Part shown: one piece after another, positions 1,492-16,850 of the stretch
How the letters are laid out: every line of letters begins with the position of its first letter
How positions within the stretch are numbered: the first letter of the stretch is position 1
DNA from: Calditrichaceae bacterium
Lineage (GTDB): Bacteria; Calditrichota; Calditrichia; Calditrichales; JBFXGD01
Reading direction: 5' to 3'
NCBI GenBank assembly: GCA_050178385.1
Contig: JBFXGD010000040.1
Coordinates: 1-24,245, forward strand
Length of the DNA stretch: 24,245 nt
Notes under the pieces: generated by a model
Seen by the model: the letters and a program-made list of their open reading frames with translations, nothing else
Database searches by the model: none
Told to the model about the DNA's origin: nothing
Made by a program: the position numbers and the translations under genes

Positions 1492-1977
1492 TTATTTCTG
1501 TTTGTTCTTTTCCGCCATACGCTCCATTCTGATCGCAGTGGCTGTCTTTATCATTTCTAAACCGGTTAGATATGTACCGCCGTAATGCGCGATAAACAAT
1601 TCTGCATTTTCACTGCTTATGAAAGCAAATGCCGGCATCATCGCGTAAGCCGGGAGAATGTTGCTGCCAACCACAAAACAGGCATCATTAATTTCGATCA
1701 GGGCGCCGGTGTAAAAATCTTTTACTTTGGCGGAACTGTACTTATTTTTGTCCATTAATACTGTCGCGCAGCCCATAGCACAGGCATGTGTCACGGAATT
1801 CGCTACATCTGACAACTCGACCCGTGTCCACATTTTTTCATAAACATCCATTCCGCAGATCGGGCAGGAGCCGATTTTATCACCCAGATCCGGCTTTAGA
1901 ATCGCGCCGGCATTTTGTGAATACCCGATGGCAGTTAATAAAAAAATACAAACTATCATTGATTTTAATGATTTCAT
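1492..1977 (-). CDS. nosL: NosL-family copper chaperone-like exported protein (divergent paralogue)
   Basis: Signal peptide; CPICGM (CxxCxM); HACAMGCA; VKDFYTG..I....A.FVVGS; F...YGG, all resembling the NosL pattern. SD GGTGGAG upstream. Confidence 0.75.
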   Translation of the reverse strand: MKSLKSMIVCIFLLTAIGYSQNAGAILKPDLGDKIGSCPICGMDVYEKMWTRVELSDVANSVTHACAMGCATVLMDKNKYSSAKVKDFYTGALIEINDACFVVGSNILPAYAMMPAFAFISSENAELFIAHYGGTYLTGLEMIKTATAIRMERMAEKNKQK

Positions 1978-2020
1978 TTTAAGTCTCCACCCTTTTTAAT
2001 ACAGGTTAATTTTGGATGAA

Positions 2021-2506
2021 TCACATTTCCTGTCCAACAGACAGTCTCATCAGTAAATCCCATGTGACTTCGTTAAATTTTATAATTTTACCGCCCTGAT
2101 GATCTTCCTTAAATTCCTCCGCATCCTTTTTTGATTTCAGAGGCACTAGTTCATTTCCCATCGGTCCAAGAATATCACTGTCAATGACAAAATATGCGCT
2201 GTCGGCCTGAACCCACTGCAATTCATAATATTCACGCACATATATCTTTACCGGTTTTTGATCCGCGGAACCTCCGTATTTTTCCGGATGCAGAAAATAT
2301 TTGAACATATCCTTTGGCCCGTCAAAAAACTTTATCGCACCGTCTTCATAAATCATTTCCGCGATCCATTTCGGATAGGGATGAACAAACATGGCGCAAA
2401 CCGGGCATCGATCCTTCTCACCGGGCATTTTTGGATTTTGACCGGCCGCTGCGGTAACGAAAACCGTAAGAAGAACCGACAGAATGATTATTTTGAATTT
2501 TATCAT
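2021..2506 (-). CDS. nosL: NosL-family copper chaperone (signal peptide, no lipobox)
   Basis: CPVCAMFV, FFDGPKDMF, IYVREYY, AYFVIDSDILGPMGNELVP, AEEFKEDHQG are NosL hallmarks. Confidence 0.88.
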   Translation of the reverse strand: MIKFKIIILSVLLTVFVTAAAGQNPKMPGEKDRCPVCAMFVHPYPKWIAEMIYEDGAIKFFDGPKDMFKYFLHPEKYGGSADQKPVKIYVREYYELQWVQADSAYFVIDSDILGPMGNELVPLKSKKDAEEFKEDHQGGKIIKFNEVTWDLLMRLSVGQEM

Positions 2507-2596: not shown

Positions 2597-3091
2597 CTAA
2601 TCGGTTCGGTGTCCGATTCTGTCAAAAATATATTTTTGAGTAAGCCATCCGACATAAATTTCAAGTATCACTCCTTCGCCACTCAGAACAAATGTGGTAG
2701 GTATTCCCTTGATTTTATAGCGCTTCGCGGTTTTTGCGTACTCATCCACCAGCATTGGGAAGGTAACGTTAAATTCAGCCCGAAAATCATCCACATGATA
2801 TTTGCTTTGTCCAACATTTACGCAAAGAATCTCTGACTGCTCCTTCTCACCAAATTGCTCATACGCGTTCTGCATCACGGGAAATTCGGATCGGCATTCC
2901 GAACACCAGTCTCCCCAAAAATGAAGAAAGACCAGTTTTCCCCTAAAATCATTTAAGGACAGTTCCTTGCCATCCACATCATTTAGAATAAAATCGGGCG
3001 CCTGCTCACCAATTTCGGGCATTCTGTCACCGCATCCCATCATAAGCATGAGAATGAGGGTGATAATCCCCATCACTGAGATTTTTTTCAA
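2597..3091 (-). CDS. TlpA/ResA-like thiol-disulfide oxidoreductase lipoprotein
   Basis: APDFILNDVDGKELSLNDFRGKLVFLHFWGDWCSECRSE (CxxC) and cis-Pro motif GIPTT. Start moved from ATG 3142 to TTG 3091, which has SD GGAG at 3101-3104 and gives a lipoprotein signal MKKISVMGIITLILMLMMGC. Confidence 0.88.
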   Translation of the reverse strand: MKKISVMGIITLILMLMMGCGDRMPEIGEQAPDFILNDVDGKELSLNDFRGKLVFLHFWGDWCSECRSEFPVMQNAYEQFGEKEQSEILCVNVGQSKYHVDDFRAEFNVTFPMLVDEYAKTAKRYKIKGIPTTFVLSGEGVILEIYVGWLTQKYIFDRIGHRTD

Positions 3092-3173
3092 TTTCAGATA
3101 CTCCGGAAAAACTCCGTCTCGTAAGAACGGGATATCAATCATGTTTTTTTAATTAGAAGACTTAAAGGATTGG

Positions 3174-3551
3174 TTATTCGGGAGGATGATAAATATCTCT
3201 TTGCAAAACAGGGATACTTAAAAAATCATTTTTTGGTCTTATCAGGGTTTGCTTATCGGGGATTAAAAGCAAATTTTCCAAAAACATTAATTTCGCGGTT
3301 AAATCCATAACCACCGGAACAATCGAGTGCATGCGTGAAGCACAGTGGGTAAAACCGATCAGCCCCGCTTCTTCGTCACAAGTGCATTTCGATATATCGC
3401 CATTGCAACCGCAATTGCAATAATGCACCAAATGCGGAAGGGCTTCAGCCTCCCGGAACGCTTCCTGAATCACCGGTATGAGGGTCATATTAAAAATGAC
3501 CAGAAAGCTCATAAACAGTGCGATGATTTTTTGTCGATTGAACCGAGTCAT
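3174..3551 (-). CDS. Small Cys/His-rich membrane/exported protein ending in HPPE; candidate DUF2946/CruR/CutF-like metal-sensing leader peptide
   Basis: N-terminal hydrophobic helix, central HLVHYCNCGCNGDISKCTC...THCASRMH (6 Cys), C-terminal IYHPPE-stop. It starts 17 bp after nosY in the same orientation. The coding call is well supported; the function is inferred. Confidence 0.7.
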   Translation of the reverse strand: MTRFNRQKIIALFMSFLVIFNMTLIPVIQEAFREAEALPHLVHYCNCGCNGDISKCTCDEEAGLIGFTHCASRMHSIVPVVMDLTAKLMFLENLLLIPDKQTLIRPKNDFLSIPVLQRDIYHPPE

Positions 3552-3568: not shown

Positions 3569-4402
3569 TTATAAATCTTTATTTGAGAATATTTTTACCG
3601 CTATCGCGAGCGGCAAACCGCCCCATGCCAGCAGTGCCGTGAACAATACCAGAAATCCGCTTCCTGTTCCACCCACAAACTTCAAAACTGCTCCTGCTGT
3701 AGGGCCGAACATGATCTTCCCACCCAGGACAAAAAGGGTTCCTACCCTCACGAGATCAACCGGATTTCCAAAAAGCATTCCGAAAAGAACATTACGGAGC
3801 ACATTACCTTCAAAACTGGATGCCAGCCACATGACAAGCAGATCATAAAGAATAACAAAAATAAACCAGACAAATAATCCTATGCTCAAAGCCTGGGTTC
3901 TCTTCATCGTGATCACACTGATTAGCGCGGAGATGCTTAAAAAGATCAGACCTAAAACAAGACTCAGTAGAACAAAGGCGATATAAGCTGTCAGATCACT
4001 CGCTCCCGCTCTCCATCCTATCACCATACCTGCGGCGCCAAAACCGATACCTGTAGAGATCACTATCGCCAGGAACAGACCAAAATACTTTCCCAGCAGA
4101 TTTTCTGAGCGAAGTACCGGCTGTGATATCTGAAGCTGTAAAGCTCCGGGCTCATCCGACGCAAAACTCATTGCTCCGAGAATAAGAGCAACCAACGGAA
4201 CAAGGTAAAGATTCAAATTTAATAAACTCGCCGTCGTGCGGATAAAATCCTGAAAACCGGTAAAGCCGGATATTTTTGTACCCGCAAAACTGATTGTCAG
4301 CGCGATTACGGCAAACACAACCGAAAAAATCATAACCCAACGGCTGCGGATTACTGATAGCAATTCCTGCATGGCGATTGAATTAATAATTTTAATATTC
4401 AT
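3569..4402 (-). CDS. nosY: NosY, ABC transporter permease for NosZ maturation
   Basis: Polytopic membrane protein: IAMQELLSVIRSRW, RTTASLLNLNLYLVPLVALILG, QPVLRSENLLGKY, NPVDLVR. Start overlaps the nosL stop and nosF is nearby. Confidence 0.92.
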   Translation of the reverse strand: MNIKIINSIAMQELLSVIRSRWVMIFSVVFAVIALTISFAGTKISGFTGFQDFIRTTASLLNLNLYLVPLVALILGAMSFASDEPGALQLQISQPVLRSENLLGKYFGLFLAIVISTGIGFGAAGMVIGWRAGASDLTAYIAFVLLSLVLGLIFLSISALISVITMKRTQALSIGLFVWFIFVILYDLLVMWLASSFEGNVLRNVLFGMLFGNPVDLVRVGTLFVLGGKIMFGPTAGAVLKFVGGTGSGFLVLFTALLAWGGLPLAIAVKIFSNKDL

Positions 4403-5162
4403 AAAATTCCTTTGTTTCTTCTGCCAGATGTGCTCCGGTTACCATGAGCCTGCCAATTATTTTATCTGACTTATTTTCAAAAATATCAAACCGGTCGCCT
4501 GGTTTATCAACTTTTAATCTATACATTCTTGACTCCCCGTATGGAATTTCCATTTGCACTTCAGGATAATTCCGGATGCTTATAGAAGCATCCTTATCTG
4601 TCCGGTTCGATATACGAATCTGAATGATCTGATTCAAAGCCGTTTCAAATACTTCCGGACTAAGTCCATTCTGCTTATATTCCGCGCGGAGATACTGATC
4701 CGGTTCCTGATACTCATCCCACATTTTATTCCAGGAGAGAATGTCAGATTCACCAATAGAATTTTTAAATTCCAGAGCTGTATTCGAATCGCTGTATGCT
4801 GTTACATTAAAATCCATTACGGGAGTGCGATAATTTCCTCTGACAAAAAGAGCGCTGTCTGCCGCAACCCAGGTTTTTGTGTCGTACGCGATGACATAGT
4901 ATTTTAGAATACTATTCTTTTCTTTTGCGCGTCCGCCTGAAAAATATTGGATCATGCAGATAGGGTGATCAAATTTTACAATTTCTCCGTTCTTCTTAAT
5001 TAATTCTGCGGCATACTCAAGATCCAGTATCTCCATCCGGCATGTTATGCAAATTTCACCCTTTTCCACCGGCACAGGTTTAGGCGCGTCATTTCCGCAA
5101 CCCATAAACAATGAAAATACAATCAATGATATCAGTGAACCGCTCCATTTTAGTTTTCTCAT
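4392..5162 (-). CDS. nosL: NosL lipoprotein with C-terminal cupredoxin-like extension
   Basis: Lipobox FMG-C; CITCRMEI; KFDHPICM; TPVM. An extra ~100 aa beta-rich C-terminal domain follows. ATGA overlap with the nosF stop. Confidence 0.88.
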   Translation of the reverse strand: MRKLKWSGSLISLIVFSLFMGCGNDAPKPVPVEKGEICITCRMEILDLEYAAELIKKNGEIVKFDHPICMIQYFSGGRAKEKNSILKYYVIAYDTKTWVAADSALFVRGNYRTPVMDFNVTAYSDSNTALEFKNSIGESDILSWNKMWDEYQEPDQYLRAEYKQNGLSPEVFETALNQIIQIRISNRTDKDASISIRNYPEVQMEIPYGESRMYRLKVDKPGDRFDIFENKSDKIIGRLMVTGAHLAEETKEFYEY

Positions 5163-6067
5163 TCCTTGGTGTTCTCCGAAAATATCCTGTTGTAAACATA
5201 TTCCAGTGTGGGATCTTCGGTCCAGAACCGTTCTATCTTAGCCCCTGCCTTTCGCAGAATTTCCAGCAAATTAGGACGTTTATCAGCTTCGACGACAACC
5301 CGGAAAACATCACCTTCGATTTCAACTTCTCTCGCTCCATTTGCAAGAAGCAGATCCTTGTATTCCGGCTGTGTATTAAGAAATACAATAATCATTCTGG
5401 CGTCAGCATCTGATGTTCTCTTTAATTCAAGCGCGTCTTTTACGGCAATCAGCCGGCCGTCCTTTAGAAGGGCAATCCTGTCCGCCAGTTGTTCCGCTTC
5501 GCTCAATAAGTGAGTGGCCATGACTATGGTGCTTTTTCTTGCTTTTATCTCTCTTACAAGTTCTTTAAATTTGGCGACACCCTGAAGATCAAGGTTTATG
5601 GTTGGTTCATCAAGTATATAAACGTTCGCCGGAGACAATTTCAATAATCCTAAACCAAGCCTCTGAACCATTCCCCCTGAATAAACCCCGACAAATTTTT
5701 CGGCTGAGCCGTTCAGATTGATATCTTTTAAAATTTCATTAATATGAGTCTGGGGTTGTTGTCTTATTTTCGAGTGATATAGAAGAATCTCTTTAGCCGT
5801 TAAATTATCCGGGAAGGACAGTCTCTGGGGCAAAAACATCATATTTTTTTTAACTTCCTTGGGATATTTCCAGACATCGGTGTCATTGACTAAAATCTGT
5901 CCGGTTGTGGGCTTGATGAGCCCGATGATCATTTTTAATAATGTCGATTTTCCGCTGCCGTTCGGACCCAGCAGAGCAAAGGTTTCTCCGGGTTTGATAT
6001 CAAGATTGACGTTATTTACTGCAAGTGTGTCTTTGAATTTTTTTGAAATATTTCTGATCTTTATCAT
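5159..6067 (-). CDS. nosF: NosF, ABC transporter ATP-binding protein
   Basis: Walker A GPNGSGKS, signature YSGGM, Walker B ILDEPT, H-loop ATH. Lies between nosD and nosL/nosY. Confidence 0.92.
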   Translation of the reverse strand: MIKIRNISKKFKDTLAVNNVNLDIKPGETFALLGPNGSGKSTLLKMIIGLIKPTTGQILVNDTDVWKYPKEVKKNMMFLPQRLSFPDNLTAKEILLYHSKIRQQPQTHINEILKDINLNGSAEKFVGVYSGGMVQRLGLGLLKLSPANVYILDEPTINLDLQGVAKFKELVREIKARKSTIVMATHLLSEAEQLADRIALLKDGRLIAVKDALELKRTSDADARMIIVFLNTQPEYKDLLLANGAREVEIEGDVFRVVVEADKRPNLLEILRKAGAKIERFWTEDPTLEYVYNRIFSENTKE

Positions 6068-6083: not shown

Positions 6084-7505
6084 TTAAATTTCTGAATTGA
6101 ACCATCTGTTTACCCGATATATCATAAGACCGGAGAATCCGAAAAGTAAAGACGAAAAAAGAAGCATCGGAAAAATCATTTTTTTCTCGTTCGGAGGCAT
6201 GACACGGGATAGCAGCCATTCCGGCATCTGTACCGGCTTCATCAGCGGATAATGGTCCGTATGTTTGACTTGTTCAATAAACGGCAGAATGTGTTCTGAA
6301 AACACCAGTGCCTGGGCAGCGGGACTATAAACATACAGACGGAAAAATGGATATTCACCCTGGAGATGATCAAAAATCCCCTGTACGCGATGCGGGATAT
6401 CACTTATTCCATCCGCGTCAAGATCGTATCCTTTAAAATTGCTCCAGTAATTTCCATGATTGTCTTTTTCCCATGTAACAGTTACTTCCCCGCCAACCGA
6501 AACCAGATTACTCAGATTATCCACAAAAGCGTTGTCATAAAAATTGGTCCCTTCAGAACTGAGATAATATTTAATCGCGACACCGCTCTGTGCAATCAGA
6601 TTGTTGCGAACCACATTTAAATGAGACATGTCAAGAAACATACCTGTCGTATTATTTACAATAAGATTATACTCAGAAAGTGAATGTCTTACATCTTTAT
6701 AGAGAACGCCATAAGCCCTGTAACCGACATTATGAGCGAAAACATTGTACCTGAACACAAGACCTCGTTCGGAGTACATCAGGGCCACACCCGCTACATT
6801 TTCAGTAAAATAGTTATGCTCGAACACATCATAATCCGAATACATGAAATGCAGGCCGTAACGGACATTTTTAATATGGCAATAGGTTATAAGGTTGCTA
6901 TCGGCAAAATCAAAATAAATACCATCACGAGCGCCATAGATATAAAGTGAATCAAGATGATTGTTTCGGGAGTCATGAAGATGGATGCCGTTTCCCCTGT
7001 CCTCTTCCGGTTCATTATCGCGCCCGTGTATTGTAGTATTGTTTATGGTATTATAATTTGCGCTGAACAGGTAGATTCCGAATAAATTATCTTCAAACAA
7101 ACAATCTTTAATAGTATTATAATGCGCTTTATAAATTTTCAGCCCGGCATTATCATGAATCCGCTGATGTCCGCCTCCTCTGATAATAAAGCCTTTGATT
7201 GTGCAGGAATCTGCATACAATTTAACCGCGTCCCCTGAATCTGTGGGAGCGGCAAGAATCGCCCCCTGCTCTCCAATCAAAATCAATTTTTTATCTATCT
7301 CAATATTGCCGTAGTATGTTCCCGGCTTTACTATGATAGTATCTCCCGGATGGGCAGCTTCGATAGCTAAATGAACTGAATTGAATTTTTGATCAGATTT
7401 CGAAACAAATATAGTGCCGGCCGTACTGGCGGGGGGAAGCGCCAGGACGATGGCGAAATTGAGAGCAACAGCCTTCCATAGACTCATTTTCATTACCGGC
7501 ACCAT
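6084..7505 (-). CDS. nosD: NosD, periplasmic beta-helix maturation protein, with C-terminal hydrophobic helix
   Basis: Signal peptide; RGNGIHL, RDGIY, RYGLHFMYS, GVALMYS, GNYWSNFKGYDLDADGISDIPH motifs and parallel beta-helix repeats. Confidence 0.95.
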   Translation of the reverse strand: MVPVMKMSLWKAVALNFAIVLALPPASTAGTIFVSKSDQKFNSVHLAIEAAHPGDTIIVKPGTYYGNIEIDKKLILIGEQGAILAAPTDSGDAVKLYADSCTIKGFIIRGGGHQRIHDNAGLKIYKAHYNTIKDCLFEDNLFGIYLFSANYNTINNTTIHGRDNEPEEDRGNGIHLHDSRNNHLDSLYIYGARDGIYFDFADSNLITYCHIKNVRYGLHFMYSDYDVFEHNYFTENVAGVALMYSERGLVFRYNVFAHNVGYRAYGVLYKDVRHSLSEYNLIVNNTTGMFLDMSHLNVVRNNLIAQSGVAIKYYLSSEGTNFYDNAFVDNLSNLVSVGGEVTVTWEKDNHGNYWSNFKGYDLDADGISDIPHRVQGIFDHLQGEYPFFRLYVYSPAAQALVFSEHILPFIEQVKHTDHYPLMKPVQMPEWLLSRVMPPNEKKMIFPMLLFSSLLFGFSGLMIYRVNRWFNSEI

Positions 7506-7575: not shown

Positions 7576-8007
7576 TTATTTCCGCCATGTTTCCTTATCG
7601 CCAAGATTCTGTTTTTGAGCAATCTGCCCTCTTACAGCGGCAACGCCAGCTTTTATCATCCATTGCAGCGCCTGATCAAGATCTTCCGTCATCTGATAAG
7701 TACAGACCTTCTTTTCATCCATTTCCTTCTTCACTCTCTCCATATATGCGAGCGCTTTATTCTCCCACATTTTAGCGTCTTTAAGCTCCTCAAATACGAG
7801 AGTATTCATTTTTCTGGACTCAACGTCCTTTATGACAGAGTCAACAATATTTTGTGTAGCTGTACATTCATTATACTTTGCTTCACACTCCTTCATATCA
7901 AATTTCTTATCCTTATACTGTGCCTGTACCGGCGCGACAAGAAAGATGCCGAGCAATAAAATCAGCACCATCCAGGCGGGATTATAAACTTTAATGCTGT
8001 TCATCAT
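7576..8007 (-). CDS. Hypothetical exported alpha-helical protein within the nos cluster
   Basis: The ATG directly follows the nosB stop (TAG-ATG). Sec signal ending VQA-Q; charged helical mature part with 3 Cys and several Met; no CxxCH. Confidence 0.8.
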   Translation of the reverse strand: MMNSIKVYNPAWMVLILLLGIFLVAPVQAQYKDKKFDMKECEAKYNECTATQNIVDSVIKDVESRKMNTLVFEELKDAKMWENKALAYMERVKKEMDEKKVCTYQMTEDLDQALQWMIKAGVAAVRGQIAQKQNLGDKETWRK

Positions 8008-8652
8008 CTACTCCTCTGATATTTTTTGTTTTCTGGAAAAGAATATTGCCGCAACCAGTAGAGCAGCCGCAATTCCCAAAAATACGGCTCCCGATCGCGG
8101 CATATTTGTCACTCCAAAATTTGCAATCTGCCTGAATCCAATTAATGGCGGGGTAAATCCCTCAATTTTCATGGCAGCCTGCGGGGATAAATCGTGCCCA
8201 TAATTATAGAGCCATACATAAAAACGGTAAAAACTGAAGCCCGCAAGGTAACTCAGGAGCACCACCAGATCTATGAGTCCCGACATACGTCCCATGATGA
8301 GCAGCCTTAATGCCAGCAGTGAAATAATACCGATTGCCAATGGCAGCCAGGTCAGCTCCGGAAAATCACTTTCCTGTATATGTTTCATACCGATGTAGTG
8401 ATTCAGAACATTTATTTCTTTCAAATGTCTGCCGTGATCTCCGCTCTCCAGTTTGTAGGAGTAAATATTCAGAACGAGTCCTTCCGGATAGAAATTCGAA
8501 TTAAGAGTCATTCTGTAGAGTGGAAAGGCGTAGGTCATCATCAGGCTGACAATCGCGATTAAAATCAAAAAACGGGATTTTACAGTCAGCGGAAGATCGG
8601 TGAACCGATTCAGCTTTTCCAAAAAATTTTCGATTCGATTTGAATTTTTCAT
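8008..8652 (-). CDS. nosB: NosB, clade II membrane protein
   Basis: YPEGL...INVLNHYIGM...FPEL and WLYNYGHDL...FTPPLIG..QIANF motifs; about 4 TM helices; directly follows nosZ. Start moved to ATG 8652 (SD AGGAGT at 8658-8663) from the track's 8694. Confidence 0.9.
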   Translation of the reverse strand: MKNSNRIENFLEKLNRFTDLPLTVKSRFLILIAIVSLMMTYAFPLYRMTLNSNFYPEGLVLNIYSYKLESGDHGRHLKEINVLNHYIGMKHIQESDFPELTWLPLAIGIISLLALRLLIMGRMSGLIDLVVLLSYLAGFSFYRFYVWLYNYGHDLSPQAAMKIEGFTPPLIGFRQIANFGVTNMPRSGAVFLGIAAALLVAAIFFSRKQKISEE

Positions 8653-8711
8653 TAGTAACTCCTTAAAAATGCCTTTACCGGGCTCCTCATGCAACTGATC
8701 AATATCCAGAT

Positions 8712-10676
8712 TTAATTAATGAGCTTTGCATGTTTGATTTTGTTAGCAGGAGTAATCTCTAGTTTATCAGCACCCTTCGGTTTTACCAATAGATAACCCT
8801 GCATCTCCTGATGCAGCGCCGAACAGAAATTGGTGCAATAGTACGGCCAGACACCCGGTTTATTTGCCTTTAGAGTAAGTGTCTTGGTTTCACCCGGGAA
8901 TAAATCTGTGTTAACATCATACTCACAAATTGCAAAACCATGAATTTCATCCCGCATTTCTTCAATATTTGTCAAATGAATTGTTAGATTATCCCCTTCA
9001 ACACATTCGATTTTTGTGGGTGCTAATGTGCTTCGGACAACAGTCATCCATACTTCTACGTTGTTTCCGTTTCTCACAACTTTGGCATCTTTAGAATCCC
9101 AAACCGCATTTGGATGCTCATTAAAAATAGCATCGGGAGGAGCGTCTGAACCTTTTTTGTAAAACATTTCCACAACATTGGAAGCGATCAGATCAGCTTT
9201 GATAAAAACCGCATAATGAGGTTCCGGCTCTGGGAATGCCTGGAATATCATTTTCATTTTTTCACCGGAGATATCTATCAATTGTCCGCTCTCCGGCATA
9301 TCCGGGCCGACGGGTAAATGCGTTCCTTTTGACAATTTGTTAAGAGACAACAGCCAGTTTCCGTGAGGATGCATCGTTTCTCCATGAGCTACCGCCAGAT
9401 GCCCGACATTGTAGGCTACGGGAATCTTATCAACCAGTTCCCATTTATCATTCAGACCAACACTCCATTTGGCGATCGCGCTTTCAACAAACAGACTGGT
9501 ATAGGCATAACCTTTTTCATCGAACTGAGTGTGAAGCGGACCAAGCCCCACCGTTACTTCCGCTTCTCTTACGGCGTCATATCTTAATACCGGAATACCA
9601 TCTTCATCCCCTTCAAAGTCTTTGTTGGCAATTGCCTGCTGAATTTTTTCAAAACTGAAAATGGAAACTGTTGGAGACAGTTTCCCATTACCAACGATAT
9701 ATTTGCCGTCCGGAGTTACGTCAACTCCGTGAGGACTTTTCGGACAGGGCATCAGGTATACTAAACCAGGATTCTTGTCCGGATCAAGCACGGGGACTCC
9801 ACCAAGCATAATCGTTTTTCCGGAGTCTTTTATGTTTTTTTCGGCAAGCTTCCAATTGACAACGGCTATATAGTCCATTTCCTTTTGAGAAGCTGTTACT
9901 TCCAGAACACCTGTTGCTCTCTCTGAATTATAGCATGTCCAGAATGCCCATCCGTCACTCGGACCTTTACCGGCATCACCAAGATCAAAATTGAAAGGCG
10001 GCATCAATATTTCCCAGCCATAACTAAAATGACCGTCAACGGGATCAATTTTAATACCGGCCACAACTCCTTTATATGATTTCGCATAATTATCGACGTC
10101 CTCATATTTTCCCTTTGGAAGTGGTATAGAAAAACGGCTGGCCATTAATGAATACTCTGTATTCGGAGTCACATAAGCGGACCCATGATCACCCATAACA
10201 TTGGGAACCGGTCCAAATACTTCAACCGTCCTGAATGTCCGGAGATCAATTCTTGCCGTACGGTTATTGGCGTTATCGTTTACAAATAACCATCTTCCAT
10301 CATAATCACCATTCGTCTCACTCGGTGCGGGGTGATGTATGTCTCCCCATCTGAAATCACCCATCAACTCTTCACTCTCAATGTCAAATCCGTATCCTGT
10401 AGCCGCATAATCCTGAAATACGGGAATCGTACGAATATGACGCATTGATGGGACGCCATAAACATACACACATCCGTTATGCCCACCGGACAGGAATACA
10501 TAGTAATCATCAAAATCACCCGGAGCGACATAAGTTCTAAGTGCATTTTCAGCGACTTCGCTCCTGGCAGTGGTCGCCTGTTTTTCTCCTCCGCCACATC
10601 CACCGCCCATAAACATCATAAAGATGCCAGCGATTATAAAAGTGGTCAGCATTGGAACTAAAATACTGCGTTTCAT
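8712..10676 (-). CDS. nosZ: Nitrous-oxide reductase, clade II (Sec-dependent)
   Basis: FLSGGHNG..YVYGVPSMR; CuZ His motifs DIHH, GDH, PHG, GPLH, GHL, EPH; CuA HGF...CTNFCSALHQEM. No twin-arginine signal. SD AGGAGGA; nosB downstream. Confidence 0.98.
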   Translation of the reverse strand: MKRSILVPMLTTFIIAGIFMMFMGGGCGGGEKQATTARSEVAENALRTYVAPGDFDDYYVFLSGGHNGCVYVYGVPSMRHIRTIPVFQDYAATGYGFDIESEELMGDFRWGDIHHPAPSETNGDYDGRWLFVNDNANNRTARIDLRTFRTVEVFGPVPNVMGDHGSAYVTPNTEYSLMASRFSIPLPKGKYEDVDNYAKSYKGVVAGIKIDPVDGHFSYGWEILMPPFNFDLGDAGKGPSDGWAFWTCYNSERATGVLEVTASQKEMDYIAVVNWKLAEKNIKDSGKTIMLGGVPVLDPDKNPGLVYLMPCPKSPHGVDVTPDGKYIVGNGKLSPTVSIFSFEKIQQAIANKDFEGDEDGIPVLRYDAVREAEVTVGLGPLHTQFDEKGYAYTSLFVESAIAKWSVGLNDKWELVDKIPVAYNVGHLAVAHGETMHPHGNWLLSLNKLSKGTHLPVGPDMPESGQLIDISGEKMKMIFQAFPEPEPHYAVFIKADLIASNVVEMFYKKGSDAPPDAIFNEHPNAVWDSKDAKVVRNGNNVEVWMTVVRSTLAPTKIECVEGDNLTIHLTNIEEMRDEIHGFAICEYDVNTDLFPGETKTLTLKANKPGVWPYYCTNFCSALHQEMQGYLLVKPKGADKLEITPANKIKHAKLIN

Positions 10677-10762
10677 GCTTTAATCCTCCTTACGTGATAA
10701 GTAAACCCCTAACCAGATTAAAAAACAATCAGGTCATTATTTATTGTATTAATCCCCGGTTC

Positions 10763-11995
10763 CTAATTTAAATTTAGCGCTTTTAACCTCGCCGCTTCTT
10801 CCGCCCTGGCTAACTTATATGCATTATTTAAAAGCATTATAACTTCCTGCTTTTCTTTATCTGTCAGGACTATCTGCGTAGAGAGGACAACTTCCATGGT
10901 TGCTTTCGGAGTCACCATAAACTGCTCAAGTGTGAGATTAAATCGTTTCTGTACATCTTCCGCCGCCATACTCAACTCAGGCCCGATATTAGTCGGTGAT
11001 TCTACTTCATACACCTTGACACTATGACAGATAAAACATCCTTTTTCGACAAAGAATTTACCGCCGCCTTCCATCATTCTTCTTTCTTTTTCTATTTCTT
11101 CCACTGTTTTCTCTTCGGTGAGATTGATCCCGGGCAGATACTCAACAGGTACATTCATTTTCTGCCAGCTCATCACAAGCATTGCCAGGGACTGTCCATC
11201 CTTTGTCGAAAAATTGAACTGCGGCATAATTGAAGTCGGCACGAGAGACGTAGGTGAGCGTAAATGTTGTACATGCCAGTTAAAAGACGATTTATAGGAT
11301 GTTGTATAATATGTAAAATCAAGCATTTCAGGATTTTTATCTCCTTCATACATCAAATCGGGTCCGATCACTCCGCCTTGACCGTTAATCCTGTGGCAGG
11401 CGCTACAGCCCTTCGTCTTCATCAGTTTTTTTGCATGGTTGATGTATTCCATTCCGTCTGTATATCGCTCATACCGGTGACAGGCATTGCAGTTAACCTC
11501 CATGAGCGCGCCTTTTGAACGCACAAGATAAATATCTTCTATTTCCTTACCTAAGACCGGAAATTCCCAGTGAGGTACCGCGCCGTAAGCTGTCGCAAAT
11601 TCCAGAGAATACCCCTGCCCACCGTGACAGACAGTACAACCGTACTTTTCAATCGGGTGTTTTTGCAATATTTTCGAAGGATGGCTCCTGTGCGGATTGG
11701 GACTGTATTCCATACCTTTCCATGTTAAACCAAGATGACAGGATGGACATCGGTCAACACGGCCAAGATCCGCGATATAGATCTGTTTTATGCCTTTTTC
11801 GACCTTCGATGCCGTCTCTTTGCCGGATTTATCATGAACGATTTTATAAAAATCATCCTGGTAAGCAATCCAATCCGCTGAATATGATTGAATAATTATA
11901 TATCCGGTAACGATTAAGAGTAACAGCGCCAGTGAAAAAAGCAGGTATGGTTCATTCTTAATCCCGTCAAAATTAAATTTTTTAAATTTATTCAT
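10763..11995 (-). CDS. Membrane-anchored pentaheme cytochrome c, putative cytochrome c subunit of the Rieske/cytochrome b complex
   Basis: Five CxxCH motifs (CPSCH, CTVCH, CNACH, CSACH, CFICH) and an N-terminal TM helix. Start moved to ATG 11995 (MNKFKK, G-rich SD), which removes the overlap with cytochrome b. Confidence 0.92.
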   Translation of the reverse strand: MNKFKKFNFDGIKNEPYLLFSLALLLLIVTGYIIIQSYSADWIAYQDDFYKIVHDKSGKETASKVEKGIKQIYIADLGRVDRCPSCHLGLTWKGMEYSPNPHRSHPSKILQKHPIEKYGCTVCHGGQGYSLEFATAYGAVPHWEFPVLGKEIEDIYLVRSKGALMEVNCNACHRYERYTDGMEYINHAKKLMKTKGCSACHRINGQGGVIGPDLMYEGDKNPEMLDFTYYTTSYKSSFNWHVQHLRSPTSLVPTSIMPQFNFSTKDGQSLAMLVMSWQKMNVPVEYLPGINLTEEKTVEEIEKERRMMEGGGKFFVEKGCFICHSVKVYEVESPTNIGPELSMAAEDVQKRFNLTLEQFMVTPKATMEVVLSTQIVLTDKEKQEVIMLLNNAYKLARAEEAARLKALNLN

Positions 11996-12014
11996 GATAT
12001 ATTTTCCCCGCCTG

Positions 12015-13397
12015 TCAGAATCGAACCGGTATTGAAGGCCAGGCTTCCCATGGCCAGTAAAAATCATAAAATGTGCCGCGCATGAATGTGCCGACAAAAA
12101 CAAGTATCAGAATCACGATAACAATGATGATAAAAATCAGATTTTGTCTATTTCTACCCTTATGAAACCAAACCCCTATCGACCGGGTATCACTTTTGTC
12201 GATAAACGGCCAGGCGGCAAGTAAAACAAGAAGCACGCCGGGTATGATAATACCACCAATAAGCGCTCCATTCAGCATATAATCACCAATTTTGAATGAT
12301 GTATCCGCCACCAGTTCCTGCAGCCATAAAAAATACCAGGGCGCCTTTGCGACATCAGGAGTAACACCCGGATTTGCCGGCGCTTCGAGAGGCGCGTGAA
12401 ATAACATTGATAAAACCGTTGTCACAAGAAATGTCAGAATAAAAACGGTAAGGATTCTTCTTGGTAAAAACGGACTGGTATTGAGAGTATCATCTTCAGA
12501 TACCATTGAAGTGATAACGCTGGGTCTTTGTCCCCTGGCGATTCCCAAAAGTGAGTATGTTTTTGATGAGGTGGCCTCAATCGTTTTCTCTTTTCTTTCC
12601 AGAGCGAGATGATCAACACAGGCCAGTCCGCCGTCTTTGCGTATTCGCCACATGTGGTAAGAAATAAGCAGAAGAAGAAAAATCGGCAGAAACGCCACAT
12701 GCAGCACATAAAACCGGATCAGTGTGTTTTGCTCAATCTGATTGCCGCCAAGAAGAAGATAGCTCATCGTGTCACCGATCAGCGGCGCGGCCTTCGCGAT
12801 ATTTGTCCCGACAGTAATCGCCCAGTAGGCAAGCTGATCCCAGGGCAGAAGGTATCCGGTAAATGAAAGAAACATGGTGAGAAGGAGTAAAACTATTCCC
12901 GACAGCCAGTTCACCGCCCTGTTTGCGCCAATGACGCCAGAGCTGCGGTATGCTCCTGTTAAAAACACCCTTACCATATGAAAAAATACAACCGCGACCA
13001 TAAGATGAGCCGCCATTCTATGGGTGTTTCTGAGAAGCCATCCGAATGATATCACAAATTCAATATCCTTTACACTCCAATAAGCCCGTTCAATGGATGG
13101 AACATAGTAAAACATCAGGACAACGCCTGTAATTGAAAGGATTAAAAATAATGAGGCTGAAATCGTACCCAACCAGAGGGAATATCCCCAGGAAAGACTT
13201 TTTTTTGTGATTTTTGCCGGAAACCAATGCAGCAGAAAGTTCCGGATAATTGATTCTCCCGCTTCTTTCGCGCTGCGGGGAAGCCATGTCCAAATGCTTC
13301 TTTCCCAAACATCCTGCCAGTACTCCCGCGATAAAATCTTTCCGTTTCCGTTACTTTTTACATCAGGTGCTTCGGTTATTTTTTCTTGAAGATCCAT
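12015..13397 (-). CDS. qcrB: Cytochrome b of a Rieske/cytb complex (b6-like domain fused to subunit-IV-like domain)
   Basis: Heme His pairs in LRNTHR...FFHMVR and FYVLHV...SYHMW; FTGYLLPWDQLAYWA; C-terminal APLEAPANPGVTPDVAKAPWYF (PEWY-equivalent). Confidence 0.95.
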   Translation of the reverse strand: MDLQEKITEAPDVKSNGNGKILSREYWQDVWERSIWTWLPRSAKEAGESIIRNFLLHWFPAKITKKSLSWGYSLWLGTISASLFLILSITGVVLMFYYVPSIERAYWSVKDIEFVISFGWLLRNTHRMAAHLMVAVVFFHMVRVFLTGAYRSSGVIGANRAVNWLSGIVLLLLTMFLSFTGYLLPWDQLAYWAITVGTNIAKAAPLIGDTMSYLLLGGNQIEQNTLIRFYVLHVAFLPIFLLLLISYHMWRIRKDGGLACVDHLALERKEKTIEATSSKTYSLLGIARGQRPSVITSMVSEDDTLNTSPFLPRRILTVFILTFLVTTVLSMLFHAPLEAPANPGVTPDVAKAPWYFLWLQELVADTSFKIGDYMLNGALIGGIIIPGVLLVLLAAWPFIDKSDTRSIGVWFHKGRNRQNLIFIIIVIVILILVFVGTFMRGTFYDFYWPWEAWPSIPVRF

Positions 13398-13413
13398 ATT
13401 GATACTCCAAAGC

Positions 13414-13929
13414 TTAGGAAATATTGAATTCCGTTCCTTTTTTGACTTCGATTGAGGTATCTATAACCAGCTGCTGATCGTCCGGGGCTATATCGATCTT
13501 ATGCCAGGGAAGAGGTGTGGGTGCCGGTCCCGCGTAGTTTGTACCGTCTTCATAAAATTTGGAGCCATGACACGGGCAGTGATATTCATGGTTAATTTCA
13601 ACATCTTTCCCGTCGATTTTAACCGTTTTGGGTTTCGCCAATTGAACATGCTTGACTGTACATCCCAAGTGAGTACACACAGCGGTATGCGCGTGCATTT
13701 TTTTGTGATTTTTGGCGATGAATTCCTTCTGCTCACTGAAAAACTTCACCCCGTCCGGAAGATCTGCGGCCGTGCCGACTTTAAATTTCTGCAGCGGCTC
13801 ATACAGCACATTTGGAACAAACGAGCGAACCCAGGCGAAAAGATTACCGGCAAAGGCGGCAACAATTGCCCCCGCACCAAGTTTGTTTAAAAAGGAACGT
13901 CTGGTTTCTTTCTTTTTTGATTCTGTCAT
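13414..13929 (-). CDS. qcrA: Rieske [2Fe-2S] protein with Tat signal anchor
   Basis: TRRSFLNK twin-arginine motif plus TM helix; CTHLGC and CPCHGS boxes; GPAP. ATG 13929 is preceded by GAGGTG; the track's alternative start is GTG 13938. Confidence 0.95.
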   Translation of the reverse strand: MTESKKKETRRSFLNKLGAGAIVAAFAGNLFAWVRSFVPNVLYEPLQKFKVGTAADLPDGVKFFSEQKEFIAKNHKKMHAHTAVCTHLGCTVKHVQLAKPKTVKIDGKDVEINHEYHCPCHGSKFYEDGTNYAGPAPTPLPWHKIDIAPDDQQLVIDTSIEVKKGTEFNIS

Positions 13930-13944
13930 CGAACTCACCTCATA

Positions 13945-15870
13945 TCAAACTAATTGTTCATCAAATGAAAATTTTTCCATAGTCATTGCATCCGTTGGGC
14001 AAATCTTTGCGCATAGTCCGCAGCGGATGCACAAATCTGTATCCTTGATCATGACCGAGAGCGGCATATCATTTTTAAGACCAAGACTATTTGTTATTTT
14101 TTCTATATCTTCCTGATTGCTTACCATATCCTCGAAAGGTATGATCTTAAGACAATACTCCGGGCAGATATCAACACATCCGCCGCAAAGAATACATTTC
14201 TCCGAATCATATATCGTCTGAATATGACATTTCAGACACCTCTCACCCTGAGCCATGGCTTCTTCAGATGAATACCCTGTTTCGACTTCGGTAATACCTG
14301 TTCTGCGGTCAGCGGAAACGGTTGGCGGGATTTCCCGGTCACACTGTTCATAACCCGCCGGCATGTCGTAGTCTTTGGTTTGAATCACTTCGATTTTAGC
14401 GGTTATTCTGACTTCAGGTTCAGATATTTTTTGCGTAGGATTTGAAAGATATCTATGTATGGAACCGGCCGCGAGTTTACCGTTTGCCGCCGCTTCGATA
14501 AGAATTCTTGGGCCAAATGCCACATCCCCGCCGCAAAAAACGCCCGGTGCGGTGGTTTCAAGTGTGGACGGATTGATTTTTATTGTTCCCTGAGGGAGTA
14601 TTTCCACATTGTCAGAAGCTCTCAAAAACGAAAGATCCGGTATTTGTCCAATTGCTAAAATGACGGTATCAGCTTCAATCATTTTCTCAGTTTCGGGCCT
14701 GAGCTCCGGGTTAAACCTTCCGCTCTCATCGAACAATTTTTCAACTTCAAGAAATTCAACGCCGCTAAGTTTTCCGCCCTTACCGGTAAATTTTTTTGGA
14801 CCTACGGATGGCAAAAATCTGATCCCTTCCAGGGCGGCTTCGTGCAATTCATCCTTTCCCTGGACTGTTTTCGACGCCGGCATTTCATCAAAAGATTCAA
14901 GAGACGCTACAATAACTTCGGCGCCTCCCCGTATCGCGCTTCGGGCTACATCTATGGCTACATGCATCTCTCCGGCTTCAGCAACACGATCCACTTCATC
15001 CATCGGTTTATAGAATTCGCGTATCGCCGTTCTCGCCGCGTCAAGAGCAACGCTTCCGCCTCCGATGACAATAACTTTTTTACCAAGATCTATTTTATAT
15101 CCGCTGTTCACATTCAATAAATAATCAACCGCTTTTACAACACCGTCCAAATGAATTCCGGGCAGATTTAGATCACGCCCCTTCATGGCGCCGGTGCTGA
15201 TAAAAATTGATTTATACCCCATTTTCTTTAATTCTTTTAGACCAAAACCCTTGTGCAGGCTGGCATTATATTTTATCTCAACACCAAGACTCTTAATAAC
15301 GGCCACTTCCCGGTCGATCACACCGCGGGTCAGACGGTATTCCGGTATCCCGAGACGCATCATTCCACCGGGAATAGCCGCCGCTTCAAAGATTGTGACC
15401 TTGTACCCAAGGAGCGCCAGATCATGCGCGCATGCTAATCCCGCGGGACCGGCACCAATCACCGCAACTTTCACACCTTCGTTTCTGCTATTGTTTTTAA
15501 GCAGGTTTGGCAAATGCCAGGTAAACTTGCTCCCCACATCAGGCTTCCCTTCTAATAAGGAATTAACTGTGTCGGGTTTTGACGATTCCGGACCATATTG
15601 CTCCGTGACAAACCGTTTTAATCCTCTAATGGTGACCGCCTCATCGATCTTGCCTCTTCTGCATGCGTCTTCGCACGGCGCGGCGCAGACTCTTCCGCAA
15701 ATGGAGGCGATCGGATTTGGTGACTTCGCCACCAGATATGCATCTTCGAATTTATTTTCGGCGATCAACTGAACATATTTCCCTGAATCGGTATGAACCG
15801 GGCAGGCTTGAAAACAAGGGACATCACTTCTATACCATTCAAAATCACGAAGATTAGTGATATATTTCAC
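13945..15870 (-). CDS. GltD/DsrL-like FAD- and [4Fe-4S]-containing NAD(P)H oxidoreductase with C-terminal 2x[4Fe-4S] ferredoxin domain
   Basis: PCFQACP, CGRVCAAPCEDAC; FAD motif VIGAGPAG; GIPEYRL; nucleotide motif VIGGGSVA; GVFCGGD; ERCLKC; CILCGGCVDICP and CIRCGLCAKICP. GTG start with SD GGGAG; no signal peptide. Confidence 0.92.
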   Translation of the reverse strand: MKYITNLRDFEWYRSDVPCFQACPVHTDSGKYVQLIAENKFEDAYLVAKSPNPIASICGRVCAAPCEDACRRGKIDEAVTIRGLKRFVTEQYGPESSKPDTVNSLLEGKPDVGSKFTWHLPNLLKNNSRNEGVKVAVIGAGPAGLACAHDLALLGYKVTIFEAAAIPGGMMRLGIPEYRLTRGVIDREVAVIKSLGVEIKYNASLHKGFGLKELKKMGYKSIFISTGAMKGRDLNLPGIHLDGVVKAVDYLLNVNSGYKIDLGKKVIVIGGGSVALDAARTAIREFYKPMDEVDRVAEAGEMHVAIDVARSAIRGGAEVIVASLESFDEMPASKTVQGKDELHEAALEGIRFLPSVGPKKFTGKGGKLSGVEFLEVEKLFDESGRFNPELRPETEKMIEADTVILAIGQIPDLSFLRASDNVEILPQGTIKINPSTLETTAPGVFCGGDVAFGPRILIEAAANGKLAAGSIHRYLSNPTQKISEPEVRITAKIEVIQTKDYDMPAGYEQCDREIPPTVSADRRTGITEVETGYSSEEAMAQGERCLKCHIQTIYDSEKCILCGGCVDICPEYCLKIIPFEDMVSNQEDIEKITNSLGLKNDMPLSVMIKDTDLCIRCGLCAKICPTDAMTMEKFSFDEQLV

Positions 15871-15913
15871 TTTGACTCCCGCAGATACAGTTAAATTTTT
15901 CCCCAGGTGCTAC

Positions 15914-16330
15914 TTAATGATTAAATACTCTTAGGAAGTTCTTTAGATTATCACAAAGCGAAAAATTTTTGTACACATCGCAACTATGACAATCTCCATT
16001 CTTACAGATGATTTTTGCTTCAAAACAGGGTTGTTTCTTCGAAATGTACGCGGGACAAGCCTTCTCCTCACTGCAATTATTTATTTCCCAGCAGGGAATG
16101 AGCGCAAGCAGCCGCCTGATACCCTCGATGTTCATCTTTTCATTCTTAATCAGGTGTCTGATCTTTTTCAGCCACTCGAGATCGCGCTCATCATAGATAC
16201 GCCGATTCGTCCCCGTCCTGTGTGGAATAACGATACCCGCATCCTCATACATTCTGAGAGTGTTGGGAGATATATCAAGGATTCGCGCAATATCACCGAT
16301 GGAATACCATTTTTTGATCAATGTTTCCAT
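15914..16330 (-). CDS. MerR-family transcriptional regulator with Cys-rich C-terminal domain
   Basis: YSIGDIARILDISPNTLRMYEDAGIVIPHRTGTNRRIY is a MerR HTH. The C-terminus CWEINNC...CPAY...CF...C...CHSC...C has 8 Cys. Confidence 0.93.
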   Translation of the reverse strand: METLIKKWYSIGDIARILDISPNTLRMYEDAGIVIPHRTGTNRRIYDERDLEWLKKIRHLIKNEKMNIEGIRRLLALIPCWEINNCSEEKACPAYISKKQPCFEAKIICKNGDCHSCDVYKNFSLCDNLKNFLRVFNH

Positions 16331-16702
16331 ATCACACTCTTTATTTCAGGCATTTTCTGCCAATTTATATCTATATTTCAAAATGTAATCAAAATTTCTG
16401 ATTTTAAAACATACGCTAACGTATAAAATTTACGTTGCATCTGCCGGTGGGTTCATTAGGATCCGTTTCGATTTCCTAAACTACAGTCTTCAAAAGTCTG
16501 ATTAAAAACAGTCAATTTAAATTCAAATCCGACGGCAAAATCATTTTCTGTCTTGTTTAAATTCTCCCGGAAACAATTTCTTATCCAAAAAACATTATAA
16601 AAAACAGTTTGCTTTGCTCATCTTCCTCTGTCTGAGTCCATTCATAATATCCATTTTAAAATGTATATTTGCTTTTGAGCCTCGGATTTAATTTTATGGT
16701 TA

Positions 16703-16819: not shown

Positions 16820-16850
16820 TAAAATAGCCGTTCAATGAACGGCTATTTTA
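16820..16850 (-). terminator. Rho-independent terminator after the acyl-CoA dehydrogenase gene
   Basis: Perfect inverted repeat TAAAATAGCCGTTCA-A-TGAACGGCTATTTTA 6 bp past the stop at 16857. On the minus strand it runs into a U-rich tract (TTTTAAATTCTTTT). Confidence 0.85.

Follow-up and report, generated by a model that had tools for sequence, protein, structure and literature searches.

A flavoprotein-Rieske-cytochrome b-cytochrome c gene module beside clade II nosZ in Calditrichaceae and Acidobacteriota

We have analysed a stretch of 24,245 nucleotides from a Calditrichaceae bacterium (hereafter the window), which is the whole 24-kb contig C40 of a 3.9-Mb metagenome-assembled genome that is 94% complete. 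It carries a nos operon for reducing nitrous oxide (N2O) in which, on the minus strand, a merR gene is followed by genes for an iron-sulfur (Fe-S) flavoprotein, a Rieske protein, a cytochrome b and a pentahaem cytochrome c, and then by nosZ, of clade II, and nosB. As judged from their sequences, the first four genes after merR are best explained as encoding a dedicated menaquinol-oxidising Rieske/cytochrome b complex, and they are co-inherited with each other and with one NosZ clade across two phyla; this conservation in relatives places the arrangement far from chance. We infer that the complex is the electron donor of NosZ in this bacterium and in roughly one in three of the NosZ-bearing Acidobacteriota in our sample, and we propose, tentatively, that its flavoprotein carries electrons from quinol to NAD+.

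NosZ is, to our knowledge, the sole biological sink known for N2O, a greenhouse gas, and carriers of clade II NosZ dominate soils. The electron route to clade II NosZ is, as far as we know, established experimentally for Wolinella only, and we know of no discussion of the NAD(H)-type flavoprotein of such complexes outside the anaerobic ammonium-oxidising (anammox) bacteria, for which its function has been argued from models. The clade II nosZ genes of Acidobacteriota, mainly of Vicinamibacteria, are among the most abundant groups (PMC13122619).

Conservation of the module beside nosZ

The seven genes from merR to nosB follow one another with gaps of 43, 15, 16, 19, 86 and 59 bp, counted from ATG starts. 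The initial annotation had given the same orientation and the same gaps, and its claim that no terminator lies between merR and nosB is borne out by a scan of the window, which placed none of its 19 terminator-like sites inside these six gaps. The closest public relative, a second Calditrichaceae metagenome-assembled genome (G038, locus L009; flavoprotein 93% and NosZ 96% identical), shows this arrangement too, on a contig of 169 kb from a separate assembly.

A survey of gene neighbourhoods for this combination beside nosZ had been proposed with the initial annotation. Our scan, which started from the flavoprotein and used one genome per species, gave 63 loci; a non-orthologue from Clostridia (L064, 35% identity) was left out, and the remaining 62 comprise 1 locus from Calditrichaceae and 61 from Acidobacteriota, mostly Vicinamibacteria and Thermoanaerobaculia, with flavoproteins 52-58% identical to that of the window. 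Rieske (62 loci), cytochrome b (61), cytochrome c (54) and NosZ (51) genes keep the order of the window and lie on one strand. Where NosZ is missing (11 loci), the sequence always stops less than 3 kb beyond the Rieske start, and the order flavoprotein-Rieske-cytochrome b-cytochrome c-nosZ is kept in 51 of the 51 loci that extend far enough; nosB, which in the window comes directly downstream of nosZ, is kept after it in 44 of the 62. Median gaps across the loci, which rest on heuristic start codons, are -4 bp between flavoprotein and Rieske genes (n=39), 10.5 bp between Rieske and cytochrome b (n=46), 1 bp between cytochrome b and cytochrome c (n=41) and 30 bp between cytochrome c and nosZ (n=32).

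The view, also taken at the outset, that the Rieske protein, cytochrome b and pentahaem cytochrome c form a dedicated partner of this type of NosZ agrees both with this count and with the presence of two more Rieske/cytochrome b loci in the window genome, on contigs C6 (~39200-42000) and C184 (~640-3740). Each encodes a multihaem cytochrome c (429 and 599 amino acids, respectively), the cytochrome b of C184 is divergent (47-53 bits to Pfam Cytochrome_B), and neither has a flavoprotein gene. Because these two loci exist without a flavoprotein, the nos-linked genes appear to be a dedicated extra copy.

The set of 62 loci was collected via the flavoprotein; independent counts started from NosZ. 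Among Calditrichota, 39 of 86 genomes encode NosZ, and the module adjoins it in three: the window genome, G038 and G075, the last with the module split over two contigs and also with genes for the MerR regulator and for the 143-amino-acid and Cys-rich proteins described below. In an even sample of 301 Acidobacteriota genomes, 35 encode NosZ. Sixteen of these NosZ are at least 56% identical to that of the window, and 13 of the 16 have the flavoprotein gene about 5 kb upstream on the same strand; next to the 19 more distant acidobacterial NosZ the module was not found (0/19). The four-gene module is common in soil Acidobacteriota (13 of 35 NosZ-bearing genomes) and an exception in Calditrichota.

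A tree of 64 NosZ rows (quick LG+G4 search, midpoint root) gathers 29 module-linked and 3 azurin-linked proteins into one clade (SH-aLRT 98) and leaves the other 32, including 18 Calditrichota NosZ, outside it. The NosZ of the window is about 60% identical to acidobacterial NosZ and at most 50% identical to other Calditrichota NosZ. In the flavoprotein tree, 21 NosZ-linked rows and one contig-edge row likewise form one clade (support 100), and the two trees are congruent. In both, the three Calditrichota sequences form a deep branch of their own, which rules out a recent lateral transfer from Acidobacteriota; because of this depth, either the sharing is old or the unit has been lost many times.

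The flavoprotein is not confined to nos loci. A further 55 Acidobacteriota genomes of the 301 encode full-length homologues, 42-53% identical, with no NosZ beside them. Seventeen such loci were picked across the identity range, of which two lay at contig ends, and in all 15 informative loci the paralogue (37-53% identical) is accompanied by Rieske, cytochrome b (fused or split) and multihaem cytochrome c genes, either in the order of the window or as Rieske-cytochrome b-cytochrome c followed, after 3-4 kb, by the flavoprotein. Their neighbours include the cbb3 oxidase subunits CcoN/CcoO (two loci) and a type II enzyme of the dimethyl sulfoxide (DMSO) reductase family (four); the remaining loci have an extra monohaem cytochrome or no recognisable neighbour. 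In the four (L088, L091, L093 and L103) the module is followed by the catalytic subunit of the DMSO-reductase-family enzyme, about 1145-1250 amino acids long, NarG/EbdA-like and scoring 306-320 bits with TIGR03479, far below its cut-off; it also falls well short of all other specific cut-offs. In the two cbb3 loci (L089 and L090), Rieske, cytochrome b and multihaem cytochrome c genes are followed by CcoN and CcoO, with the flavoprotein 3-4 kb downstream on the same strand; L089 additionally encodes a DsbD-like and a CcoG/FixG-like protein.

Since all 15 loci without NosZ pair the two, the flavoprotein belongs to this type of cytochrome b and not to NosZ, and the special link between flavoprotein and NosZ seen in the initial annotation was drawn too narrowly. 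From its gene neighbourhoods the four-gene module, which is biochemically uncharacterised, appears to be a portable respiratory unit that stands beside NosZ, cbb3 or type II DMSO-reductase-family enzymes, that is, beside enzymes of high-potential couples.

Subunits and the proposed electron route

The flavoprotein (13945..15870; this and all other genes described are on the minus strand) is predicted to be a soluble cytoplasmic protein of 641 amino acids, with neither a membrane segment nor a signal peptide in its sequence and hydropathy profile. Family assignment, made for open reading frames of at least 80 amino acids in the window, gave Pfam Fer4_20, Pyr_redox_2 and Fer4, which corresponds to an N-terminal domain with two [4Fe-4S] clusters, an FAD domain, an NAD(H)-type nucleotide domain and a C-terminal ferredoxin domain with two more [4Fe-4S] clusters; the protein would thus be a wire of four predicted [4Fe-4S] clusters. 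It also contains one incidental CXXCH. In a sequence search of solved structures its nearest relatives are the NfnB-like parts of 9bov/9bp5 (E 1.6e-79), 9n5u ('NfnA') and 8oh5, followed by NfnI (5jca), GltD and dihydropyrimidine dehydrogenase, and its C-terminal 90 residues match the polyferredoxin FwdF (5t5i, E 7.5e-11).

The flavoprotein has Ser323-Leu324-Glu325 where the second strand of the nucleotide fold ends, a place taken by Tyr-Arg-Arg in 9bov and 9n5u. Ser-Leu-Glu is invariant in 31 orthologues, and Leu-Glu, with Glu325, is found in 38 of 38 members of the family regardless of their neighbour genes. In Rossmann folds an acidic residue at the end of the second strand goes with NAD(H), not NADP(H). 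Because Glu stands where the NADPH enzymes carry Arg-Arg, NAD(H) is the likelier nucleotide. The protein had initially been called an NAD(P)H flavoprotein; a nucleotide-binding Fe-S flavoprotein it does appear to be, and the choice of nucleotide left open by that name was too broad.

The Rieske [2Fe-2S] protein (13414..13929 from an ATG start; a GTG at 13938 is also open) matches Pfam Rieske and has a perfect twin-arginine signal motif, TRRSFL. Its cluster-binding boxes are CTHLGC and CPCHGS-K-F, with Ser and Phe after box II.

The cytochrome b (12015..13397; Pfam Cytochrome_B and Cytochrom_B_C) is a fusion of a cytochrome b6 and a subunit-IV-type part, 460 amino acids long with seven membrane helices, of which hydropathy assigns four to the first part and three to the second; NCBIfam ExtP/ExtQ-like models match it below their cut-off. 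In an alignment to the b6 of 1vf5 it is nearest to b6 and has all four haem-ligand histidines, and these bL/bH ligands (H126, H140, H233 and H248) are invariant in 32 orthologues. The motif A-K-A-P-W-Y-F of the subunit-IV part, at the putative Qo site, is invariant as well; it keeps WY and replaces the acidic residue of PEWY.

Two conserved elements of cytochrome b face the cytoplasm: N-F-L-L-H57-W-F-P-A-K before helix A, whose His57 is invariant in the orthologues, and K-T-Y-x-L-L-G-x-A-R-G in the linker between helices D and E. An R253/K254 pair lies after helix D, 196 residues from H57. Of 13 fused cytochromes b with a flavoprotein gene nearby, 12 have the linker motif; six fused relatives, from other Calditrichota, without such a gene within 5-6 kb all lack it. 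The loci of these six (L141-L146), which are natural controls for the flavoprotein question, encode a Rieske protein, a fused cytochrome b 33-42% identical to that of the window (tblastn) and a pentahaem-like cytochrome c, with the N-terminal His of cytochrome b kept and the linker motif absent. Because the motif co-varies with the flavoprotein gene, we take the D-E linker to be the likeliest docking site of the flavoprotein. Two copies of cytochrome b (residues 28-442, alignment A1), modelled together with the last 167 residues of the flavoprotein (alignment A2), gave ipSAE values of 0.26 and 0.15, under the mark of 0.32, which weigh neither for nor against docking.

The cytochrome c (10763..11995; 410 amino acids; Pfam cytochrome c families) has five CXXCH motifs and one N-terminal helix, and is predicted to be periplasmic and membrane-anchored. 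Its solved relatives are limited to short CcoO-like stretches. In a single comparison with the monohaem NosC-like cytochrome of another Calditrichota locus, only the haem motifs aligned (E 0.037), and homology between the two is not supported.

These features suggest the following route. Quinol would be oxidised at the Qo site, and the high-potential electron would pass through the Rieske protein and the pentahaem cytochrome c to CuA of periplasmic NosZ. The flavoprotein would bind to cytochrome b from the cytoplasmic side, with the His57 region and the D-E linker as its probable docking site, and the low-potential electron would run from haems bL/bH through the Fe-S chain and FAD to NAD+, as proposed for anammox bacteria; this is the least secure step. 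The very positive N2O/N2 couple would pay for the reduction of NAD+, and the NADH may re-enter the chain through complex I, whose NuoD subunit is encoded in the genome. The whole reading, quinol to NAD+ with N2O as the high-potential acceptor and all steps included, is one that we hold tentatively and put a little below even. The direction towards NAD+ is favoured because the recognisable neighbours of the module are all enzymes of high-potential couples, as bifurcation needs, because the Rieske pattern resembles that of a high-potential anammox protein, and because NADH entry without pumping brings no gain to a cell with complex I, which might obtain about four extra protons per two electrons by cycling NADH through that complex.

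A number of observations weigh against this reading. In cytochrome b, Trp75 occupies the position of the haem-cn Cys (in the 1vf5 alignment and in the 32 orthologues) and the CxGG of anammox and b6f proteins is absent; because of this, and because cytochrome b is fused and its subunit-IV part has three helices, the anammox model is not simply transferable. We infer binding of the flavoprotein to cytochrome b only from gene linkage and the cytoplasmic-side motifs, of which His57 is shared by six to seven fused relatives whose surrounding 5-6 kb contain no flavoprotein gene. Present with and without the flavoprotein gene, His57 would be a trait of the wider subfamily and not specific to the flavoprotein, and membrane parts much like those of the window do occur, at L141-L146, with no flavoprotein gene nearby. 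On the side of NosZ, 3 of the 16 acidobacterial proteins of the same clade lack the module within 6 kb, and in two of these three loci an azurin-type cupredoxin is encoded directly upstream of nosZ, as in Luteitalea pratensis (PMC13122619); NosZ of this clade can therefore do without the module. Both trees were quick and had no outgroup, and their module-linked rows were collected via the flavoprotein and are not random. A weak promoter-like site (9/12 matches) lies within the 86-bp gap between cytochrome c and nosZ, so that nosZ may be transcribed separately. Finally, the host is probably a heterotroph with NuoD and has no obvious need for NADH from quinol unless the loop yields proton-motive force, and the sequences are just as compatible with electron flow the other way.

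That opposite direction, which the initial annotation had named as an alternative, is the one that survives best. NADH would feed the Fe-S chain of the flavoprotein and, from there, the b haems or a quinone site on the n side, giving a self-contained NADH:N2O chain with turnover at Qo; such a chain resembles the proposed FNR-b6f route in cyclic electron flow and would be a fast NADH sink for a peptide-fermenting heterotroph. All of the structural evidence fits it as well as it fits quinol-to-NAD+ transfer. The NAD(H)-type motif suits a catabolic donor, and both the R-K pair that follows helix D and an n side like that of b6 are retained, leaving room for an n-side quinone site. However, complex I, for which there is a NuoD gene, would conserve more energy from NADH, and the neighbours of the module are all enzymes of high-potential couples (NosZ, cbb3 and the type II DMSO-reductase family), a pattern to be expected where a strong high-potential pull is required and one that a plain NADH dehydrogenase would not need. 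For the anammox complexes, this direction has been rejected as 'an enormous energy loss' (PMC12954380). We consider a reversed complex unlikely, yet a serious rival.

The complex might instead run an ordinary Q-cycle dedicated to NosZ, with the flavoprotein as a co-expressed soluble enzyme that passes no electrons to or from cytochrome b, for example an NADH:ferredoxin-type redox-balancing enzyme or an assembly or repair reductase. The four b-haem ligands are intact, a Qo-type motif is kept, and the membrane part can evidently work alone, because L141-L146 have a Rieske protein, fused cytochrome b and multihaem cytochrome c and no flavoprotein gene nearby. Yet the flavoprotein gene adjoins Rieske/cytochrome b at every orthologous (62 of 62) and paralogous (15 of 15) locus and usually overlaps the Rieske start by 4 bp, the cytoplasmic linker motif of cytochrome b co-varies with it, and co-migration has reportedly been observed for the homologous subunits of anammox bacteria (de Almeida 2016, cited in both PMC12954380 and PMC5600118). 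A merely co-expressed flavoprotein seems to us somewhat less likely still. That a general complex III sits near nos by chance or through an assembly error, which a single contig of a metagenome-assembled genome might allow, is contradicted by the conservation counts (the same order in 51 of 51 informative loci of two phyla), by the two other Rieske/cytochrome b loci of the genome, by the congruent trees and by the same arrangement at L009, and can be dismissed almost entirely.

If quinol-to-NAD+ transfer is right, it need not be tied to N2O. The module might be a general 'turbo' complex III, in which bifurcation at Qo sends one electron to N2O, to O2 via cbb3 or to a type II DMSO-reductase-family enzyme and the other uphill, by way of the b haems and four Fe-S clusters, to NAD+, with complex I re-oxidising the NADH; this wider idea is possible, though we regard it as doubtful. 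If true, it would mean about four more pumped protons per two electrons delivered to N2O, and abundant soil N2O reducers (Vicinamibacteria, Thermoanaerobaculia and some Calditrichota) would conserve more energy per N2O than in textbook schemes. In that case the mechanism disputed for anammox bacteria would be a principle of wide occurrence, one that could be tested in heterotrophs. In either direction the flavoprotein matters: if it makes NADH, the energy yield of N2O respiration needs recalculation, and if it is a consumer of NADH, the chain from NADH to N2O in these bacteria is a short one.

The nos operon of the window

By its gene content, the window appears to hold a complete clade II nos operon, with Sec-type NosZ, nosB and nosDFYL and without nosR or nosX. 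NosZ (8712..10676) scores 828.3 bits with the Sec-dependent clade II model TIGR04246 (cut-off 625) and 456 bits with the twin-arginine-type model, under its cut-off of 625. Its N-terminus reads MKRSILVPML..., with a hydrophobic stretch at residues 5-23 and no twin arginine, and it has no fused cytochrome c domain. NosB (8008..8652) is a predicted polytopic membrane protein without a family match, recognised by the motifs LNHYIGM and YGHD; NosB proteins are described with LNHYIGM and YGH[DN] (PMC9697520).

Between nosB and nosD lies a gene for an exported protein of 143 amino acids without a family (7576..8007). It occurs in Calditrichota loci only, with 65-90% identity in two others, and is not found in the acidobacterial loci. 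Then follow NosD (6084..7505; Pfam NosD, 139 bits), the ABC ATPase NosF (5159..6067; Pfam ABC_tran and synteny), a NosL-domain protein of 256 amino acids (4392..5162; Pfam NosL, 31 bits) and the ABC-2 permease NosY (3569..4402; Pfam ABC2_membrane_2 and synteny). Further downstream are a Cys-rich, membrane-anchored protein of 125 amino acids without a family (3174..3551; YCNCGCNGDISKCTC), with a 42% identical copy in G075, a ResA/TlpA-like thiol-disulfide oxidoreductase (2597..3142; Pfam AhpC-TSA/Redoxin, with NCBIfam ResA below cut-off) and two more NosL-domain genes of 161 amino acids each (2021-2506 and 1492-1977), which together span 1492..2506 and score 111 and 27 bits with Pfam NosL. Three NosL genes, the ResA/TlpA-like protein and the Cys-rich protein make up an unusually rich set for copper or thiol maturation (1492-5162). 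After the nos genes, a TonB-dependent receptor (Plug and CarboxypepD_reg) is encoded at 2-1408; we presume that it could be a NosA/OprC-like copper importer. Weakly similar TonB receptors follow or flank the nos genes in L109, L120, L121 and L129.

The initial annotation had found no nosR, nosX, nosG/nosH or monohaem nosC, and family and CXXCH screens of the window bear this out. Among its open reading frames of at least 80 amino acids there is no match to the NosR (FMN_bind/Fer4_5), NosX (ApbE) or NapG/NapH-like families. A CXXCH screen of open reading frames of at least 60 amino acids returned the pentahaem protein and the flavoprotein only, and hence no monohaem NosC. A nosGH pair elsewhere in the genome had been named as a possible rival donor to NosZ, and none was found in the 94%-complete genome: FMN_bind matches are confined to open reading frames of 200-244 amino acids, none of them nosR-sized, and the best match to the NapH model (102 bits against a cut-off of 213) is a lone gene on contig C7.

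The upstream border of the unit is marked by one strong intrinsic-terminator-like hairpin (16820..16850, minus strand; 14-pair stem and T-run, with 15-nt arms that are 100% complementary), which closes an unrelated acyl-CoA dehydrogenase gene upstream of merR. Because the hairpin ends that gene, the nos unit would begin downstream of it; an AT-rich spacer of 490 bp separates the hairpin from merR. The MerR-family regulator (15914..16330; Pfam MerR_1, 74 bits; under every NCBIfam cut-off) has nine Cys in its C-terminal half (CWEINNC...C...C...C...C..C..C......C). A merR gene upstream of the flavoprotein gene is found in the three Calditrichota loci only, and in aligned upstream regions all three (the window, G038/L009 and G075/L123) keep the dyad TACATTT-N2-AAATGTA (16372..16387 and with one mismatch in the window), a candidate operator about 50 bp upstream of the merR start. 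Within the unit, the 86-nt gap between cytochrome c and nosZ folds no better than shuffled sequence (z -0.02) and therefore gives no sign of a terminator or riboswitch; a good ribosome-binding site stands at its end.

Comparison with known systems

The nearest parallel, drawn already in the initial annotation, is with the complexes of anammox bacteria (Kuste4569-4574 and Kustd1480-1485 of Kuenenia stuttgartiensis), and it proved apt in both subunit composition and the solved relatives of the flavoprotein. In Kuenenia, as in the window, the Rieske protein and a cytochrome b of b6 type are encoded together with a multihaem cytochrome c and a cytoplasmic NAD(P)-type Fe-S flavoprotein, next to an enzyme of a high-potential couple. 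Kartal et al. proposed in 2013 that two of the Kuenenia complexes reduce NAD(P)+ by bifurcation at the Qo site, and AlphaFold3 models place the NAD(P) reductase on the negative side; in them each cytochrome b contributes an N-terminal His to the binding of an extra b haem, close to an Arg or Arg/Lys that follows helix D (PMC12954380). The spacing from this His to Arg/Lys is 204 residues in both anammox proteins and 196 here, and the flavoproteins share the relatives 9bp5 (NfnABC) and 5t5i, by fold there and by sequence here (PMC12954380). The proposal is backed by the Rieske potentials of anammox bacteria, which lie above +300 mV, with +335 mV measured for Kustd1480, which has the same Ser and Phe after box II as the protein of the window (PMC12954380).

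The two systems also differ, as far as published descriptions of the anammox proteins allow them to be compared. Cytochrome b is fused here, with a three-helix subunit IV and no CxGG, whereas anammox bacteria have a split b6 and a five-helix subunit IV. The cytochrome c has five haems here and six or eight there, and the partner is NosZ here and an HAO-like octahaem protein there. The NAD(H)-type motif and the probably heterotrophic host also set the unit of the window apart.

For clade II nos clusters, the habit of drawing 'Fe-S, Rieske, cy-b, cy-c' genes reportedly goes back to Sanford et al. in 2012. The drawn clusters share with the window a Sec-type NosZ, nosB downstream, nosDFYL, the absence of nosR and nosX, and Fe-S, Rieske, b and c genes upstream (PMC11096178 Fig. 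5, PMC13122619 Fig. 2, PMC9697520). In these drawings, however, 'Fe-S' is a gene label only, for what may be the gene of the window; it is not described there as an NAD(H)-binding flavoprotein, and the consequences of such a reading are not discussed. In a search of the full-text literature, which covered neither key subscription papers nor figures and supplements, we found no link of the 'Fe-S' gene of nos clusters to an NAD(H) flavoprotein or to the anammox proposal.

A second line of published work, by Dibrova et al., concerns cytochromes b of subfamily G and clade G', which in many genomes co-occur with large NAD(P)-binding, Cys-rich oxidoreductase proteins, the long clade G' forms standing in large conserved operons of unknown function (PMC5600118). 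By the traits described, namely a long cytochrome b that lacks CxGG and the company of an NAD(P)-binding Fe-S protein, they resemble the proteins of the window, but no link to NosZ is drawn there, and 'nitrous oxide' occurs 0 times in the available text of that paper (PMC5600118). The initial annotation had put the route forward as a candidate new one, but the arrangement is neither unseen nor rare: besides the 13 of 35 acidobacterial genomes, nos cartoons with Fe-S/Rieske/cy-b/cy-c labels and the co-occurrence reported by Dibrova are already in print.

Wolinella succinogenes shares with the window a clade II NosZ, NosB and a Rieske/cytochrome b(c) complex in the electron route, which is said, in work by Hein et al. 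in 2017, to comprise NosGH, NosC1/C2, NosB and Rieske/bc. In contrast to Wolinella, the window lacks NosGH and the monohaem NosC1/C2, its NosZ has no fused cytochrome c domain, and its Rieske complex is encoded in the operon with a flavoprotein, whereas the Rieske/bc complex of Wolinella is a housekeeping one.

Ordinary Calditrichota nos loci have the same order nosZ-nosB-(nosL)-nosD-nosF-nosY. Unlike the window, however, they have an Rrf2-family regulator at their start (in all 8 examined) and usually a monohaem cytochrome c (5 of 8), with no MerR and four-gene module at the start and with NosZ at most 50% identical to that of the window. In two Calditrichota loci (L113 and L108) a fasciclin-domain gene lies directly upstream of nosZ.

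Among flavoproteins, the NfnAB/GltD/DsrL type has in common with the protein of the window the N-terminal two-cluster domain and the FAD and nucleotide domains, and we take the extra C-terminal ferredoxin domain to resemble the DsrL architecture. The protein of the window differs from this type in having no NfnA-like partner gene, in Glu for Arg-Arg, in a conserved insertion in the nucleotide domain and in being encoded, always, with Rieske/cytochrome b. By the predicted make-up of its proteins, the unit of the window is a variant of a conserved, biochemically uncharacterised respiratory complex, related in composition to the complexes of anammox bacteria.

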